This document shows positions 4,769-61,220 of a stretch of 64,000 nt of DNA, piece by piece. The translations under genes and the position numbers were made by a program. Below the pieces are notes generated by a model. It was not told where the DNA came from. It saw only the letters and a program-made list of their open reading frames with translations, and did no database searches. Source of the DNA: an uncultured Bacilli bacterium (GTDB lineage: Bacteria; Bacillota_I; Bacilli_A; RF39; UBA660); assembly GCA_947626655.1 (NCBI GenBank), contig CANQTA010000001.1, forward strand, positions 22,750 to 86,749. The letters run 5' to 3'. Positions within the stretch are counted from its first letter, which is position 1. Each line of letters starts with the position of its first letter.

Positions 4769-6391
4769 ATGAATGATTATTCAGAAAATAATGAAGAAAA
4801 AATTAAGGAAGAAGAACATAAAGATGGAATGCGACATTTTTTGGTTTATGCAATTATTTTTGTAGCAATATTGATAATAGCTGCGATAACTGCTACCTTT
4901 GCTTATTTTACCGCTAATGTGGATATGACTAATAGTAGACCAACTAATATTGTTGGTACTACCGAATGCATTGATGTGCAATTTGAAGTTGAAAGTGATG
5001 CTGATGGTATTGAATTACCATTAAACTATCCGATTAGTGATGAATATGCCATGGAATATGGCCATGTAAAACCAGTTACTGTAAAAGTAATTAATAAATG
5101 TACTAATGAAAAACAAGAACCTATTGATTATACTTTGGCTATTACAACAGTTGGTAATAATCCTACTGAAACTGATAAGGGATCTATAACTGATAATAAA
5201 ATTAGATTTCTATTCGAAAAGGAAACAAAGAGTACTGGCGAACTAACTCAACCTGAAAATCCTGATTATTTGACCAGTTTAGATATTTTAGATTCAATGT
5301 CTACTAACTATACTTTAATTAAACAAAGTTTTTTAAATGAACATCGGATTAATTTAAGTGATTATAGTTGGTCAAATATATATAAGATAGATGCGGACAG
5401 TATTGCGACTAATTCAACTAATGTTTATAAAATCTATTTATGGATTGATTATTATGAAGGGGATGCTGATGCTTACACAAGTGGTACTCATACAAGCGAG
5501 GGGTATGATAATTCTACTAAGGGGCAAACATTTAAATCATTAATTAGCCTAGTAGTTAATAATAATGAAAATGCTACTGGTAATATAGATAATTATATTT
5601 GGACAAAGGCTATTACAGGTGGTGAACAAGTAATTGCTAAAAATCCTCAAGGTTTAGTTACTACCACAGATGAAAGTGATTTAGTACGAAGATTTGTGGG
5701 TACAGATGTTAATAATTATATTTGTATAAATAATGAAAAATGTGAAGAAAATGATGAATATATGTATCGAATTATTGGTTTGACTGAAGATGGCAAATTG
5801 AAATTAATCAAAGCAACTCCTTATAAAGAAAGTGCTTCTATTGCTTGGGATACTAGTTATACTACTGATAGACAATGGGGTGTAACTACATTAAATAGTG
5901 AATTAAATGCACCAAGCTTTTTAAGTAATCCTAGTTATATTCCAGAAATATTAAAATCAAAAATAATATTAAATAATTGGAAACAAGGTTTAGTTGTTAA
6001 TAACGAAGAAGAAGGGGCAGAAGAAATAACGGCAAGTGAAATAATTACAGGAGAAAATAGTGCCGTTGATACTATATCTCGTCATATTGGACTTATGTAT
6101 TTAAGCGATTATGCCTTAGCTACTTCTAGTAATGAAACTAGTTGTGTTAGTACTACTTGTGATAATTGGTTAAAAGATACAACAAATACATTATGGACAA
6201 TGACTCGTTATGGTAAAGAAAAAACTAATAATCGTTATAGTGCTTGGACAATAAAAACTGATGGAACTGTTACTCATACAAATGTTGATCAAACCAATGT
6301 AGTTTATCCAGTTTTCTATCTACAATCTAATGTAACTATAAGAGGTGGCGATGGTTCTATAACTGATCCAATGATTGTTATATTCCAATAA
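4769..6391 (+). CDS. surface/secreted protein, intact member of a paralogous family (540 aa); N-terminal signal anchor, Thr/Asn/Ser-rich
   Basis: RBS aagggtga. A cytoplasmic N-tail is followed by the TM helix FLVYAIIFVAILIIAAITATFAYF. The C-terminal half is clearly homologous to the 60086.. and 40841.. products (shared blocks YICI..C..NDEYMYRIIG, LKLIKAT, HIGLMYLSDY, CDNWLKD, VYPVFYL..GGDGS..P). Confidence 0.7.
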   Translation: MNDYSENNEEKIKEEEHKDGMRHFLVYAIIFVAILIIAAITATFAYFTANVDMTNSRPTNIVGTTECIDVQFEVESDADGIELPLNYPISDEYAMEYGHVKPVTVKVINKCTNEKQEPIDYTLAITTVGNNPTETDKGSITDNKIRFLFEKETKSTGELTQPENPDYLTSLDILDSMSTNYTLIKQSFLNEHRINLSDYSWSNIYKIDADSIATNSTNVYKIYLWIDYYEGDADAYTSGTHTSEGYDNSTKGQTFKSLISLVVNNNENATGNIDNYIWTKAITGGEQVIAKNPQGLVTTTDESDLVRRFVGTDVNNYICINNEKCEENDEYMYRIIGLTEDGKLKLIKATPYKESASIAWDTSYTTDRQWGVTTLNSELNAPSFLSNPSYIPEILKSKIILNNWKQGLVVNNEEEGAEEITASEIITGENSAVDTISRHIGLMYLSDYALATSSNETSCVSTTCDNWLKDTTNTLWTMTRYGKEKTNNRYSAWTIKTDGTVTHTNVDQTNVVYPVFYLQSNVTIRGGDGSITDPMIVIFQ

Positions 6392-8170: not shown

Positions 8171-8995
8171 ATGGAAATATTAGATGGAAAAAAAGTAAGT
8201 AGCGAAATACTTGCAAATGTTAAAGAAGAATTAGATAAAATAAAGAAGAAAATTGGTTTTGCCATTATTTGGGTTGGCGATAATCCCGCTAGTGAAATAT
8301 ATGTCCGAAATAAATTAAAGAAATGTATGGAATTAGGTATTGATGGTAAACTTTATCATTTAGCTGAAAATACTAAAGAAGAAGATTTATTAAAATTGAT
8401 TGAAAAATTAAATAATAATAAAGAAATTAACGGGATACTTTTGCAAAGTCCAGTACCGGCAGGAATTAACATAAATAAATGTTTTAATAAAATAGATTGT
8501 CGTAAAGATATTGATGGTTTCTCAAATGTCTCAGTAGGGAATTTATGGTTAGGAGAAAAAGGTTTTAGTTCTTGTACTCCGAAAGGAATTATTAAATTAT
8601 TAGATTATTATAAAATTCCCATAGAAAGTAAAAATGTTTGTATTATTAATCGCAGTAATATTGTTGGTAAGCCTTTAGCAGCTTTGTTTTTAGAAAGAAA
8701 TGCTACTGTTACGATATGCCATTCAAAAACCAAAAATTTAAGTGATTATACTAAGATGGCTGATATTGTTATTAGTGCAGTAGGTAAACCTAATTTTATT
8801 ACTGAAGATATAATTAAAGAAGGAGCAATTGTAATTGATGTGGGGATAAGCAGAATAGATGGTCATGTAGTTGGTGATGTTGATTTTGCTAAAGTCTCTC
8901 CCAAAGCTTCTTATATTACTCCTGTTCCTGGGGGAGTTGGACCAATGACAGTAGCAATGATATTCGAAAATATTTTAGATGCAGTAAGGGAGTGA
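8171..8995 (+). CDS. folD: bifunctional methylenetetrahydrofolate dehydrogenase/cyclohydrolase FolD
   Basis: FolD length and motifs ([36 protein letters not shown]). Confidence 0.85.
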
Positions 8996-10221
8996 AAAAT
9001 GTGGATAAATATTTAAAAGATGCTTTGAAATTAGAAAGAAAAAGACAAGAGGAGAATATTGAGTTAATAGCTTCTGAAAATTACGTTTCTAAAGATGTTT
9101 TAACATTACAGGGAAGTATACTAACGAATAAATACGCAGAAGGGTATTCAGGAAAACGTTATTATGGTGGTTGTGAAAACATTGATATGTTTGAAAATCG
9201 TGCTATTGAACATTTAAAAAATTTATTTGGTTGTAAATTTGCTAATGTTCAACCTCATAGTGGTTCTAGTGCTAATATGGCTGTATATAAAGCTTTACTT
9301 AATGTTGGCGATAAAGTTATGGGGATGAATTTAAGTAATGGTGGGCATTTAACTCATGGTTATAAATTAAATTTTAGTGGAAAAGAATACGAAATAGTAA
9401 GTTATGATGTTGATGCAGAAACCGAAGTAATAGATTATGAAGCATTAAGAGAATTAGCTATCAAAGAAAAACCCAAAATGATTATTGCTGGTGCTTCTGC
9501 TTATTCAAGAATTATTGATTTTAAAAAATTTCGAGAAATATGTGATGAAGTTGGAGCTTATCTTTTTGTTGATATGGCTCATATAGCTGGTTTAGTTGCT
9601 GCTGGGCTTCATCCATCGCCAATACCTTACGCTGATGTTGTAACATCAACTACTCATAAAACATTAAGAGGACCAAGAGGAGGCATTATTTTAACTAATA
9701 ATGAAGAAATTGCTAAAAAGATAGATAAAACAATCTTCCCAGGTATTCAAGGTGGACCTCTTATGCATGTAATCGGTGCTAAAGCGGAGTGTTTTTATGA
9801 AGCATTACAACCCGAATTTAAAGAATATCAAAAACAAGTTATTAAAAATATTAAAGCCATGAGTGATGAATTTATTAAATTAGGATATCATGTCGTTAGC
9901 GGGGGAACTGATAATCATTTAATTTTATTAGATGTTAAAAGTGTTGGTTCAACTGGTAAGGAAGCAGAAACGTTACTAGATAAAATACATATTACTGTAA
10001 ATAAAAATACTATTCCTAAAGAAACTGAGAAGGCAACTATTGCTAGTGGAATTAGAATAGGTAGTCCAGCCATGACAACTAGAGGATTTAAGGAAGAAGA
10101 GTTTGTTAAAGTGGCGCATATTATTGATAAAGCAATTCGAAATAAAGATAATGAAGAAGTATTAAAGGAATTAACTAAAGAAGTTTTAGAACTTACTAGT
10201 AAGCATCCTTTAAATTATTGA
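8992..10221 (+). CDS. glyA: serine hydroxymethyltransferase
   Basis: LIASENYVS.., the PLP-lysine region [14 protein letters not shown], 409 aa. Confidence 0.9.
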
Positions 10222-39996: not shown

Positions 39997-40733
39997 ATGG
40001 AATTGAGTTTAGTTAAAAAGGCGTTAATTACCCCAAAAAAGATGAATTTATCAGGAAATTTATATCATAAAACTCAAATAGATTTTGCTTATAATAATAA
40101 TTATATTGAAGGCTCAACTATAACACCAGATGAAACAGCTAGTATTTATGATACAGGGACAATTTTAACAAGTCAGGATAAAGTAATTGTTTTAAAAGAT
40201 GCAACCGAAATCAAAAATCATTTTACTTTATTCAAATATATGTTAGATACAATTGATGATAAACTTTCTGAAAGCATGATTAAAAAATTTCATTTTATCT
40301 TAAAAGATGGTACTTTAAGTGATAGTGAAAAAGAATGGTTTAATGTGGGCGAATATAAAAGTAAGAAAAATTTTGTTGGTAATATTACTACTTCTTCATC
40401 CAAAAATGTTGCCAAAGATATGCAAAAACTTCTTAATTGATATGATAAGATTGCTAAAAAAGCATAGAAGATATTATAGAATTTCATGTTCGCTTTGAAA
40501 GTATTCATCCTTTTCAAGATGGAAATGGGAGAGTTGGCAGAATGATTATGTTTAGAGAATGCTTATATAATGACATAATGCCTTTTTATATTGAAGATAG
40601 AAATAAAGACTTCTATATTAGAGGCATTAAAGAATATCAAACTAATCACGAAAAAGGTTATTTAATCGATACATGTTTAAATAGTCAAGATAATTATGAA
40701 AAGCTAGCTAAATATTTTTTAGAAGATGATTAA
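39997..40733 (+). pseudogene. fic: Fic/Doc-family (AMPylase/toxin) gene disrupted by frameshift and stop codons
   Basis: The N-terminal ORF 39997..40440 ends at TGA. The Fic active-site motif HPFQDGNGRVGR (HPFx[DE]GNGRxxR) is read in a different frame (40458..40733), with in-frame stops at 40438 and 40455. Confidence 0.65.
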
Positions 40734-40840
40734 TATTTAAATTTTAAAAAACAGACTTAATTTCCGAATATGAATTTTAATATTCATTTTGTTGAAAACC
40801 CCATTTTCGGAGCTTGCCTCGCACAAACCGCGAGACAAGC

Positions 40841-42196
40841 TTAACTGCTTTGCAAATTTATTCTCCATGGACTTTCTTTACTTCCATCTCCACTTTTGAT
40901 TGTCGCTTCTGATTTGAGTACAAGGACCGGACGCACGCCATAGCTGTAGTAGTTCACGCTGACGCAGCTCACATAACCACTACTGCCGACAGTCAACGCA
41001 TAGTACGTAGCGTCGGCTTGGCGAGAAAGCGTCCATTCATTTACTCCATTATACAACCAATTCTCACTTCGATTTTCTTTTGTATTATAATAAAATAATT
41101 GAGTACTCCAATTACTTGGGGCTGATGCATAACCATACTCTGTAACATACATCAATCCTACTTTACTTGTTTGATATAATAAGGCATCTGTACATTGTAC
41201 ATAACTTTGTGAGTTATCTGTACATTGGCTTGATGAACTTGTTAATTTATTTGCTCCTAATTCATTATCATATGCTGCTTTCATACTACTTTGTCTTGTT
41301 ATATTATTATACGTATTTCCTCCAATATACCACTTTGTATTTTCTATTAAACTCGTATATGAGCTTAAACTTGTTAAATAATTTCCACTTTCATTGTTTA
41401 ATGTCTTATTCAATGTACTTGATATCCAGTTATTCCATGTAATAGAACTATTTCCACTCCAATAAAAACCTACTGCATTTGTTACATCTGCTCTTGGAGT
41501 ATAATCTGTTGCTGTTGTATATTGTGATAATATTTTTGATGTTAATCCTCCTCCTAATTCAGCTTCTGTTATATACTCACTTTTTATTATCTTCATTTCA
41601 TATTTTGTTGGCTCTCCTTCTTTTGGAAACCATCCTATTACTCGATATAATTTAGTTGTATCACATACTCCATCACCATTATTATTACCATCTAAACATA
41701 CATAATTATTTGGATTATTGCCTGCAAATCGATAACTATTATCTCCAGCTTCATTAGCACCATATGTTCCTTTTCCATCATGATATACTAAATATCCATC
41801 ACCAGTTGATAATTTAGTAGTATCATCTACATATTCTGGTAATACTTTTGATACTTTTAAATCAAAATACAAATAACAATAAGCTGTTATTCCTGTATCT
41901 ACAGTTGCTATATGATTTTCTTCATCATATGTTAAGATTTCTTCTTCTATTTTATTACCATCACCATCTATACATCCTGACATTGTTTTATTAAATGTAT
42001 ATCCTTCTTCTGGCCAAGTATTTCTTTCATCGGCTACATAGGTACTTGTTCCATCTTCTTGTTTTTGCTCTAAATACATAGCAAACATATTCTTATCTAC
42101 TATATTATTTAATTTTACATCATATAACTTATTATCTTTTTTAGCAAAAGACATATAGTTTATAATTATAATTGTTAATACCACTGGTATTAACAA
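40841..42196 (-). CDS. surface-protein family paralog 2 (451 aa from an internal TTG); native ATG at 42264 is out of frame because of a 41-bp tandem duplication, putative phase-OFF allele
   Basis: Homologous blocks with 4769.. and 60086.. (YVCLDG..C.TTKLYRVIG, GLMYVTEYGYA, YGVRPVLVLKSEATIKSGDGSKESPW). The track ORF starts at a TTG with no SD. An SD-preceded ATG at 42262-42264 reads MKFNKRYLLLLIPVVLTIKDIFYC* and then terminates. Confidence 0.6.
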   Translation of the reverse strand: MLIPVVLTIIIINYMSFAKKDNKLYDVKLNNIVDKNMFAMYLEQKQEDGTSTYVADERNTWPEEGYTFNKTMSGCIDGDGNKIEEEILTYDEENHIATVDTGITAYCYLYFDLKVSKVLPEYVDDTTKLSTGDGYLVYHDGKGTYGANEAGDNSYRFAGNNPNNYVCLDGNNNGDGVCDTTKLYRVIGWFPKEGEPTKYEMKIIKSEYITEAELGGGLTSKILSQYTTATDYTPRADVTNAVGFYWSGNSSITWNNWISSTLNKTLNNESGNYLTSLSSYTSLIENTKWYIGGNTYNNITRQSSMKAAYDNELGANKLTSSSSQCTDNSQSYVQCTDALLYQTSKVGLMYVTEYGYASAPSNWSTQLFYYNTKENRSENWLYNGVNEWTLSRQADATYYALTVGSSGYVSCVSVNYYSYGVRPVLVLKSEATIKSGDGSKESPWRINLQSS

Positions 42197-42256
42197 TAAA
42201 AGATATCTTTTATTGTTAATACCACTGGTATTAACAATAAAAGATATCTTTTATTG
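42171..42256. repeat. perfect 41-bp tandem duplication (2 copies + 4 bp) containing palindrome TTGTTAATACCACTGGTATTAACAA
   Basis: Unit attgttaataccactggtattaacaataaaagatatctttt occurs at 42171-42211 and again at 42212-42252. 41 is not divisible by 3. The unit encodes the LLLLIPVVLTI signal-anchor segment. Confidence 0.9.
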
Positions 42257-42344
42257 AATTTCATAAACTCTTCTCCTTTTTATTTTTCTATTTCAACTAA
42301 ATTATAATACATTATTATTCTAAAAATCAATAGATTTTAAGCAA

Positions 42345-60085: not shown

Positions 60086-61162
60086 CTATAATGCTATTTT
60101 AAATGGATTACTTGTTGTTCCTTCTCCAGACACCTTTATATCGGCTGAAAGATAGAAGACTGGATAAGCTGCATTAGAATTATTTGTATCCCAGTGATCA
60201 AGACTGCCAGATGAAATTATTAACCATGCACCATATCCGTCATCACCACGAAACCGTGTTATTGTCCATTGATTATTAGATGAATCTTTTAACCAGTTAT
60301 TACATGATGATGTAGATTGACAATTTGTTGTTCCTGCATTATTTTCGGCATAATAATAATCACTTAAATACATTAAACCTATTTGCGTACTTGTATTATC
60401 TTGTGTAGTATTTTCTGCATCATATACTTCTTGCCCGGTATTTGTTTCGGTTGATACTGAACCTTGGTTCCAGCTCATATTTATTATCTTTGTTTTTAAT
60501 GTTTGAGGAATATATGATGCATTATTTAAAAATGATTCACTATTTAATTCTGTTCCTAAATCACCTTGACTCCATTGATAATCTAAGTAATAACTTGAAT
60601 TCCACATTGTTGATGTATTATAAGCAGTTGCCTTAATTAATTTTAAATTTCCTTCACTTGTTGTACCAATTATTCTATACAGATAATTTTCATTACATGT
60701 TCCTTCTCCTACATTGGGATCTATACATATATAATTATCTACTTCTGTTCCAACATAACGATATTGTAAACTTCCTGTATTTGTTTCTTGTAAGCCTTTT
60801 GATTTCTTATTGGCAACATAATTTCCACCTAATAATGTTTTTTCATCGAAATATAAATAGCAATATACCGTTTGACTACTTGTTACTGTTACTTTATTAT
60901 TATCATTTGATAATATTCCCTCTATTTTTTTGCCATTACTATCCATACAACCACTTTCATCTAAGTTTAATGTATATAGATTACTATCTGGAAACATGTC
61001 ACTTCCTGTGTATGGTTCATATTTATCTTCTTTTTTTACATACATAGCAAATGTATTATCTTTTCTTACTTGATTTTTAATCTTTACTTCATCTACTGCC
61101 ATTTTATTATTGCTCTTATCTGGTATAAGTATTATTATTGTTGATACTAATAGTATCAACAA
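60086..61162 (-). CDS. surface-protein family paralog 3 (358 aa from an internal TTG); native ATG at 61230 is out of frame because of a 41-bp tandem duplication, putative phase-OFF allele
   Basis: Strong homology to 4769.. (YICIDP..C.ENYLYRIIG, NLKLIKATAY, QIGLMYLSDY, CNNWLKDS, AYPVFYL..GEGTTSNPFKI). An SD-preceded ATG at 61228-61230 reads MKKQLKYFSLLILLVSTN* and then terminates. Confidence 0.6.
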   Translation of the reverse strand: MLILLVSTIIILIPDKSNNKMAVDEVKIKNQVRKDNTFAMYVKKEDKYEPYTGSDMFPDSNLYTLNLDESGCMDSNGKKIEGILSNDNNKVTVTSSQTVYCYLYFDEKTLLGGNYVANKKSKGLQETNTGSLQYRYVGTEVDNYICIDPNVGEGTCNENYLYRIIGTTSEGNLKLIKATAYNTSTMWNSSYYLDYQWSQGDLGTELNSESFLNNASYIPQTLKTKIINMSWNQGSVSTETNTGQEVYDAENTTQDNTSTQIGLMYLSDYYYAENNAGTTNCQSTSSCNNWLKDSSNNQWTITRFRGDDGYGAWLIISSGSLDHWDTNNSNAAYPVFYLSADIKVSGEGTTSNPFKIAL

Positions 61163-61220
61163 ACTAAAATATTTTAGTTTGTTGATACTAATAGTATCAA
61201 CAAACTAAAATATTTTAGTT
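61138..61220. repeat. perfect 41-bp tandem duplication (2 copies + 1 bp) containing palindrome TTGATACTAATAGTATCAA
   Basis: Unit ttgttgatactaatagtatcaacaaactaaaatattttag occurs at 61138-61178 and again at 61179-61219. It encodes the LLILLVSTI signal-anchor segment. The unit length (41 bp) matches the 42171 locus. Confidence 0.9.

Follow-up and report, generated by a model that had tools for sequence, protein, structure and literature searches.

Why would a very AT-rich bacterial chromosome carry, at the 3' end of a gene for a membrane-anchored protein, a short and sharply bounded GC-rich block? The question is raised by a 64,000-nt stretch of DNA (hereafter the window) from an uncultured bacterium of the GTDB lineage Bacilli_A, RF39, UBA660 (GenBank assembly GCA_947626655.1, contig CANQTA010000001.1, positions 22,750 to 86,749). 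An original prediction, made from the window without database searches, had described a GC-rich island at 40790-41040 and attributed it either to a C-terminal cassette imported or gene-converted from a higher-GC donor, or to selection for a nucleic-acid structure. According to our analysis, which is based on sequence comparison, the block 40927-41027 within this island is very probably the variable repeat (VR) of a diversity-generating retroelement (DGR), and the gene 40841..42196 that contains it would be one of at least three dispersed chromosomal targets.

Composition of the GC-rich island

The island is real and is the top-ranking 250-nt GC window across the 64 kb, but its GC content over 40790-41040 is 48.2% and not the 54% first given. 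This compares with a window mean of 26.5% and places the island about 4.9 standard deviations above the mean (standard deviation of 250-nt windows, 4.5 percentage points). The core at 40915-41035 has 55.4% GC, and at the scale of 120-150 nt the tRNA cluster at 1720-1884 is its sole equal in the window. The island consists of two GC-rich pieces with about 85 nt of ~35% GC between them, and the boundaries of the GC-rich block are sharp. GC content at third codon positions (GC3) is 65% in the 34 island codons vs. 14% in the 15,817 codons of the other genes of the window. The GC-rich codons that had been described as essentially absent elsewhere are rare there, but they do occur, at 5-15% of their families (GTG 5.9% and GTC 10.3% of Val, CCG 7.1% of Pro, CGC 6.4% of Arg and GGC 14.9% of Gly codons). 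The equivalent C-terminal modules of the two paralogs in the window were correctly recognized as AT-rich, with 28-35% GC per 60-nt bin in the gene at 4769 and 27-42% in that at 60086.

A template repeat and adenine-specific variation

A silent donor copy, for which the original prediction had proposed to search the rest of the genome, was found by sensitive blastn of the island against the loci of homologous genes. This second, non-coding copy of the block lies at 9972-10072 of locus L005, about 115 nt past the stop codon of a paralogous target gene (encoding the homolog P0003), and we refer to it as the template repeat (TR). It is 101 nt long, contains 38 adenines and has 44.6% GC. Read in the frame of the gene it gives LSRQADNTNNALNVNNSGYVNNNNVNNNRNGVRP, with 14 Asn codons; it is bounded by stop codons, and upstream of the point at which homology starts it has in-frame stops and unrelated sequence. 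The window itself contains no copy of the TR: searching it for repeats, and comparing the island with the masked window by blastn at word size 7, returned chance matches only.

The differences between the VRs and the TR fall almost exclusively on template adenines. All 20 mismatches of the window VR are at TR adenines (hypergeometric P = 5e-11), as are all 21 mismatches of the VR in L005 and 19 of the 21 in the VR of a third locus, L007 (P about 1e-11 each). When the three VRs are compared pairwise, 27/27, 24/26 and 23/25 of their differences are at TR-adenine sites. The adenines are replaced by G, T and C, and deamination is therefore not the cause. Most of the adenines (34/38) occupy codon positions 1 or 2, mainly in AAC/AAT codons, and a single TR codon (AGA) is able to mutate to a stop. 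The block residues of the homologs P0001-P0003 can all be reached from the TR codons by changes of adenine to any nucleotide (A-to-N), with one exception in P0004, and the theoretical repertoire compatible with the TR is ~10^20 proteins.

The mutated sites are confined to positions 9-87 of the 101 TR positions, and the unmutated VR flanks comprise 8 GC-rich nt at the 5' end and 14 GC-rich nt at the 3' end. Past ...CGTCCGG the similarity of VR and TR becomes imperfect (TCCTTGTACTCAAATCAG vs. AGACCTTTATATAGTTCCAG). From their sequence, the GC-rich flanks and imperfect 3' repeats match the initiation of mutagenic homing elements (IMH/IMH*) of DGRs; constant flanks rich in GC, IMH/IMH* and targets at remote sites all belong to the standard features of DGRs (PMC5758913). 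In the target open reading frame (ORF) the VR is at the 3' end, 27 codons ahead of the stop. These last codons (40844..40926) have normal composition and are 95% identical between the window gene and the L005 paralog.

Only 2 of 189 non-adenine positions (63 in each of three VRs) differ from the TR, whereas the paralogous genes around the VRs are 55-97% identical per 60-nt bin. From this contrast we conclude that the VRs were refreshed from the TR after the paralogs had separated. Taken at the level of sequence, the features that define a DGR all appear to be present. The coordinates of the features are collected in Table 1.

Table 1. Features of the putative DGR target in the window; positions are those of the 64,000-nt window.
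Feature	Position	Strand	Remarks
Predicted VR of a DGR	40927..41027	-	101 nt, 56.4% GC; encodes ...LSRQADATYYALTVGSSGYVSCVSVNYYSYGVRP of the target protein; gapless alignment to TR
Constant GC-rich VR 3' end (T GGCGTGCGTCCGG), IMH-like	40927..40940	-	TR/VR identity stops here
Constant GC-rich VR 5' flank (TTCTCGCC)	41020..41027	-	TR/VR homology starts exactly here
Last 27 codons of the target gene (...VLVLKSEATIKSGDGSKESPWRINLQSS), not TR-templated	40844..40926	-	~35% GC
GC-rich inverted repeat	40811..40841 (arms 40811-40822 / 40830-40841)	-	12-bp arms, 7-nt loop; overlaps the stop codon
Predicted DGR target gene	40841..42196	-	From the ORF list; membrane-anchored, Ig-like N-terminal part and DUF6273-like domain
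Perfect 41-nt tandem duplication, 2.1 copies	42171..42256	-	TRF score 172, 100% matches; inside the signal-anchor codons

By analogy with established DGR biology, we posit that the TR gives rise to a transcript, from which an error-prone reverse transcriptase (RT) makes cDNA, misincorporating opposite adenines. The resulting cDNA would replace the VR, with the GC-rich 3' end GGCGTGCGTCCGG marking the site at which homing is initiated. In this way about 20 surface residues in the beta-hairpin region of a lectin-like domain might be rewritten, drawing on the repertoire given above, and the binding of ligands could change while the scaffold stays fixed.

Homologs and their distribution in the genome

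Four close homologs of the target gene product, P0001-P0004, were present in the protein collection at 74-100% identity. Their C-terminal flanks are identical (NWLYNGV.EWTLSR and GVRPVLVLKSE.TIKSGDGSK), and about 15 interspersed residues that differ lie between these flanks, so that hypervariability is seen only inside WTLSR...GVRP. In the alignment of the homolog loci the variation is likewise confined to ~80 nt of DNA. As a control served twelve variants of a more distant homolog (418 aa) without a template, in which the region displayed no hypervariability. This series was considered as a second hypervariable target and rejected, as it represents strains at 98-99% identity.

The DNA was read for two of the homologs, P0003 (loci L005 and L006) and P0004 (L007). 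Their genomic contexts differ from that of the window gene, and they are therefore paralogous loci. Two loci come from assembly ERZ27248994, namely L001, which matches the window with 100% identity over 11,019 nt, and L006, which matches L005 with 100% identity over 8,703 nt. Assembly ERZ27249265 is the source of L005 and L007 and also of a further locus, L017, with 100% identity to the window over 10,399 nt. Contig coverages range from 7.4 to 9.0, and GC content is 26-28% throughout. From these sequences we infer one organism with at least three targets, which would be the window gene, the P0003 gene beside the TR, and the P0004 gene.

The original prediction had named as evidence against itself a segment that matches nothing outside the lineage and that relatives carry at the same place with normal divergence. 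There is indeed no match outside the lineage and all relatives are GC-rich at the same place, but the divergence is far from normal, the stretch being hypervariable at template-adenine sites and otherwise invariant among the relatives.

Two further genes of the window, 4769-6391 (+) and 60086-61162 (-), are same-domain paralogs that have no VR and no similarity to the TR. At the position of GVRPVLVL in the target, they have the equivalent motif V/AYPVFYL, and the 60086 paralog shows a mild GC rise at the equivalent place (the 42% of one 60-nt bin).

An independent, related pair of target and TR was observed on a short contig from another sample (L046, positions 1-681; ENA ERZ27247134). It was found via P0123, one of only 3 proteins recovered by a profile search with the C-terminal 77 aa that included an Asn-rich pseudo-TR row. 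The contig contains, in this order, the 3' end of a gene with a VR, the stop codon, a GC-rich hairpin, ~60 nt, and an Asn-codon-rich TR copy; of 22 core mismatches, approximately 16 fall on TR adenines. Behind the TR there is an AT-rich terminator-like hairpin, and the start of an RT gene is absent from the 195 nt past the TR.

The target protein

At its N-terminus, the target protein has a membrane anchor and a beta-rich part, and these are followed by a large C-terminal domain. In an hmmscan, the window protein matched no Pfam family at E <= 0.1 and the gathering threshold of PF19789 (DUF6273) was not reached; several homologs at 30-40% identity carry precomputed PF19789 matches. A profile search of PDB sequences with the target gave no match. 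An AlphaFold model built from 103 sequences has a mean predicted local distance difference test score (pLDDT) of 85, with values >90 across the VR. Foldseek comparison of structures returned DUF6273 phage proteins with probability 1.0, the Thomasclavelia ramosa IgA peptidase 9qa6 (E = 1.5e-4) and, weakly, the C-terminal domain of Legionella Lcl. On the strength of these homologs and of the predicted fold, we regard the protein as a divergent relative of DUF6273 and not as a member by the curated threshold.

In the model, the VR residues (376-409 in P0001 numbering) are located on consecutive beta-strands and turns near the C-terminus. DUF6273 domains have been reported to adopt a C-type-lectin fold, in which the VR of gut-phage DGR targets forms a surface beta-hairpin (PMC10743442). 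No phage homolog of the target protein was detected by tblastn. The target genes are chromosomal and are located among housekeeping genes, namely GDPD/MurG, RNase Y/RNase J and GatB/MreC.

The hairpin behind the stop codon

The second GC-rich piece of the island is the inverted repeat listed in Table 1, which follows the VR at a distance of 85 nt. Its arms pair perfectly on the strand of the gene when one G-U pair is allowed. Compared with shuffled sequence, the hairpin folds with -12.8 kcal/mol and z = -4.7 as DNA, and with z = -5.2 in the RNA context. The hairpin and ~30 nt of flank are 100% conserved in L005, where they lie between the VR and the TR, and in L046 the VR core is followed at ~86 nt by a GC-rich hairpin whose sequence is unrelated. 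GC-rich inverted repeats have been reported for 34% of DGRs (PMC5758913). By analogy, the hairpin probably corresponds to the GC-rich inverted repeats known from many DGR targets, and a putative role in target recognition seems likely; alternatively, it may serve in transcript ending or processing.

The tandem duplication in the signal anchor

As a result of the 41-nt duplication, the window gene is split in two, the main ORF and a leader ORF of 24 codons (42190-42264). It is also found in the independent assembly of this locus (L001). The TR-adjacent paralog in L005 has a single copy of the unit (8472-8540) and an intact N-terminus.

Duplications of 41 nt occur at the same signal-anchor spot in the window gene (42171-42256), in the 60086 gene (61138-61220) and in the P0004 gene (L007 ~10000-10085). 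The two in the window are perfect and the copies in L007 differ at one base. The duplication breaks the frame and leaves the leader ORFs MKFNKRYLLLLIPVVLTIKDIFYC and MKKQLKYFSLLILLVSTN, each ending at a stop. Within the window, the two duplications are the strongest tandem repeats (TRF scores of 172 and 166, the next being 103). In four paralogs the 41-nt unit consists of two adjacent perfect palindromes whose sequences differ by compensatory changes, and in the single-copy gene the unit is flanked by a 5-nt direct repeat, CAATA, 41 nt apart. The duplication could reflect on/off phase variation by gain and loss of units, or hairpin-driven slippage. Short-read assemblies break at the 41-nt duplications.

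Convergent with the DGR target, the window contains a Fic-domain gene (39997-40733, +) with an HPFQDGNGR motif at ~40500-40530. An in-frame stop (40438-40440) and, shortly past it, a frameshift interrupt this gene, and judging from its sequence it is probably a pseudogene.

The missing reverse transcriptase and the state of the system

Several observations weigh against a DGR as the origin of the block. A TR is usually found right beside the RT gene (PMC5758913), and with Pfam lists and a six-frame scan for Y/F-x-DD neither an RT gene nor an Avd-like accessory gene was detected in the 64-kb window, in the 9.9 kb upstream or 9.8 kb downstream of the TR, in the 20.5 kb around the P0004 gene, or in ~14 kb past the window edges (L045 and L017). 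The TR was not seen on the contig of the window, and its assignment to the same genome is based on co-occurrence, equal coverage and equal GC content. With respect to ongoing activity, the L007 VR has two non-adenine mismatches, two assemblies share an identical P0003 VR, and the frameshifting duplication is present in three of the paralogs. As for the hairpin, the L007 target has an AT-rich terminator-like hairpin in place of the GC-rich one, and the 85 nt between hairpin and VR compare with 4-34 bp in characterized phage DGRs, whose hairpins have 4-nt loops (PMC3240598).

Locus L013 was likewise without an RT. In total the search for an RT covered ~130 kb, which is a minority of this genome. 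L005 shows the layout of target, hairpin and TR without a nearby RT, as does L046, though over far less sequence. The RT is either unlinked from the TR or lost.

If the RT has been lost, the system would be a fossil DGR, with VRs that were diversified in the past and an island that is a frozen relic. Besides the failure to find an RT in the sequence covered, this would agree with the two non-adenine mismatches in L007 and the identity of the P0003 VR in two assemblies, and also with the splitting of the window target gene by its 41-nt duplication and with the probable pseudogene state of the Fic gene beside it. We nevertheless consider a fossil unlikely. The near absence of non-adenine differences within paralogs that have diverged around the VRs indicates that the repeats were refreshed after this divergence, the TR is intact and the GC-rich flanks have been kept. 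Moreover, only a minority of the genome was covered, and the distance between a DGR target and the RT may be anything between a few kb and millions of bp (PMC5758913).

For a DGR whose RT is encoded elsewhere, we can sketch a more specific arrangement, which we put forward tentatively and hold to be possible but doubtful. The TR would lie behind one target and be unlinked from an RT >10 kb away, perhaps on a mobile element, and would serve at least three lectin-like targets, most of them gated by a reversible 41-nt duplication. Such a system would combine on/off switching with hypermutation.

The site where an RT or an accessory gene would be expected, downstream of the TR, is occupied by an ORF of 73 aa that is rich in Lys and Glu (L005 10216-10437). 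It is the sole gene between the TR and a convergent RNase J gene, has no significant Pfam match, and weakly matches a PHROG of unassigned function (E = 2.5e-4).

At the left of the window, a tyrosine integrase gene (741-1703) beside tRNA-Glu and tRNA-Ile (1720-1884) marks the end of an integrated element that reaches beyond the window. The element (L045) encodes Rep_trans, a Zot-like ATPase, a single-stranded DNA-binding protein and many tiny ORFs, a gene content suggestive of a prophage of the filamentous (inovirus-like) type. It is without an RT. In other assemblies there are breaks at the tRNA genes by this element. To the right of the window (L017) there are housekeeping genes for NusA and IF2, again without an RT.

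Why the block is GC-rich

The composition of the block follows from the two repeats. The non-adenine positions of the TR are 71% G+C vs. ~42% expected from the composition of this strand. Between 19 and 21 of the 38 adenines are replaced in each VR, and in the window VR 12 of the 20 replacements are G or C; the VRs accordingly have 53-57% GC compared with 44.6% in the TR. The block is high in GC because its constant scaffold, including the GC-rich flanks, is adenine-free and 71% G+C, and because A-to-N mutagenesis swaps about half of the adenines, mostly for G or C.

A C-terminal cassette that had been imported horizontally, or gene-converted, from an organism of higher GC content would explain the foreign-looking GC content and codon usage (GC3 of 65% vs. 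14%) and the sharp block boundaries, but we regard such an origin as very improbable. Phage and plasmid records contain no DNA similar to the island. Matches to a 20-nt island core in genomes and metagenome contigs of ~60% GC are chance matches without extended similarity, and IMG/VR gave no match to it. The exact VR 3' core GGCGTGCGTCCGGTCCTTGT had chance matches only, in sequences of ~60% GC, in scans of JGI metagenomes, IMG/VR and GTDB genomes; its final 7 nt are VR-specific, so that such scans are unable to find a TR. A TR-compatible pattern gave 25 chance matches in IMG/VR, on contigs of 52-70% GC and without extended similarity. With no match in phage or plasmid records and only chance matches in the scans, we reject a foreign high-GC donor. 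In addition, the encoded segment is homologous to the AT-rich paralogs, and the within-lineage template accounts for every base. The idea of an imported or gene-converted cassette was therefore right in that the block has been overwritten from a donor copy, but the donor is the organism's own non-coding TR, of 44.6% GC, and not a foreign sequence. The mode of transfer would be adenine-specific mutagenic retrohoming as known from DGRs, and not ordinary gene conversion or horizontal import.

Selection for RNA or DNA secondary structure in the coding block, as in a regulatory or antisense RNA, is equally improbable even though GC-rich segments of AT-rich genomes are often structured RNAs and the tRNAs are the only other comparable GC peak here, since the folding of the three VRs and of the TR is no better than that of dinucleotide-shuffled sequence (z = -0.40, -0.14, +0.97 and +1.73), no Rfam family reached the gathering threshold for the island, and 32 positions vary freely among the copies without a compensatory pattern. 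Of the structural explanation first offered for the island, what holds is limited to the hairpin downstream of the block.

Comparison with known systems

The DGR proposed here is most closely paralleled by chromosomal DGRs with several targets, as in Treponema, and by the gut-phage targets with DUF6273 domains. TvpA is a target of the Treponema denticola DGR. Seven remote targets have been described for the DGR of this species (Wu et al. 2018, PMC5758913). The system described here resembles this and other non-phage remote-target DGRs (PMC5758913) in its dispersed targets, C-terminal VRs, single TR and A-to-N differences, and in the use of surface proteins on a C-type-lectin-like scaffold. In those systems, however, the TR is beside the RT and the targets are of the FGE-sulfatase/DUF1566 type, whereas here the TR follows straight after a target with no RT within ~10 kb, and the targets are DUF6273-like proteins of a host with 26.5% GC.

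With the prototype, the DGR of Bordetella phage BPP-1 (mtd-avd-TR-brt), our system shares the adenine-specific pattern of TR-to-VR differences, the VR at the 3' end of the target, the GC-rich VR end followed by imperfect IMH/IMH* similarity, and a GC-rich inverted repeat downstream of the target. BPP-1 carries a compact phage cassette with one target and with Avd and Brt adjacent, while no Avd or RT was found here in the sequence covered. The BPP-1 hairpin has an 8-bp stem and a 4-nt GRNA loop and follows immediately after the VR, within the +24 bp that are needed for target recognition; the hairpin here has a 12-bp stem and a 7-nt loop and is 85 nt away.

The DUF6273 targets of gut-phage DGRs ('tentaclins', tgt2; PMC10743442) and the Faecalibacterium prophage DGRs (PMC11792537) are alike in using this domain family as the scaffold, in the beta-hairpin VR within a C-type-lectin-like domain, and in having one TR for more than one target. 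Those proteins are receptor-binding proteins encoded in phage cassettes, and some of their VRs are near the 5' end. The targets described here differ in being chromosomal genes with an N-terminal membrane anchor and housekeeping neighbours. What is unusual about the present system is the position of the TR behind a target without a nearby RT, the distance between hairpin and VR, and the extremely AT-rich host.

Implications for the detection and architecture of DGRs

In a very AT-rich genome, a DGR VR can betray itself by a sharp GC island at a gene's 3' end. DGR targets can accordingly be found from composition alone, even where the RT is distant or missing from the assembly, and DGR finders that are anchored on the RT could miss a target such as that in the window. 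Our analysis adds a probable chromosomal multi-target DGR acting on membrane-anchored, DUF6273-like proteins of an uncultured low-GC bacterium, whose gene content points to the Bacillota as its probable phylum. If the TR is truly unlinked from the RT, the accepted architecture of DGRs would be widened, and this would suggest that RT-anchored surveys undercount these elements.

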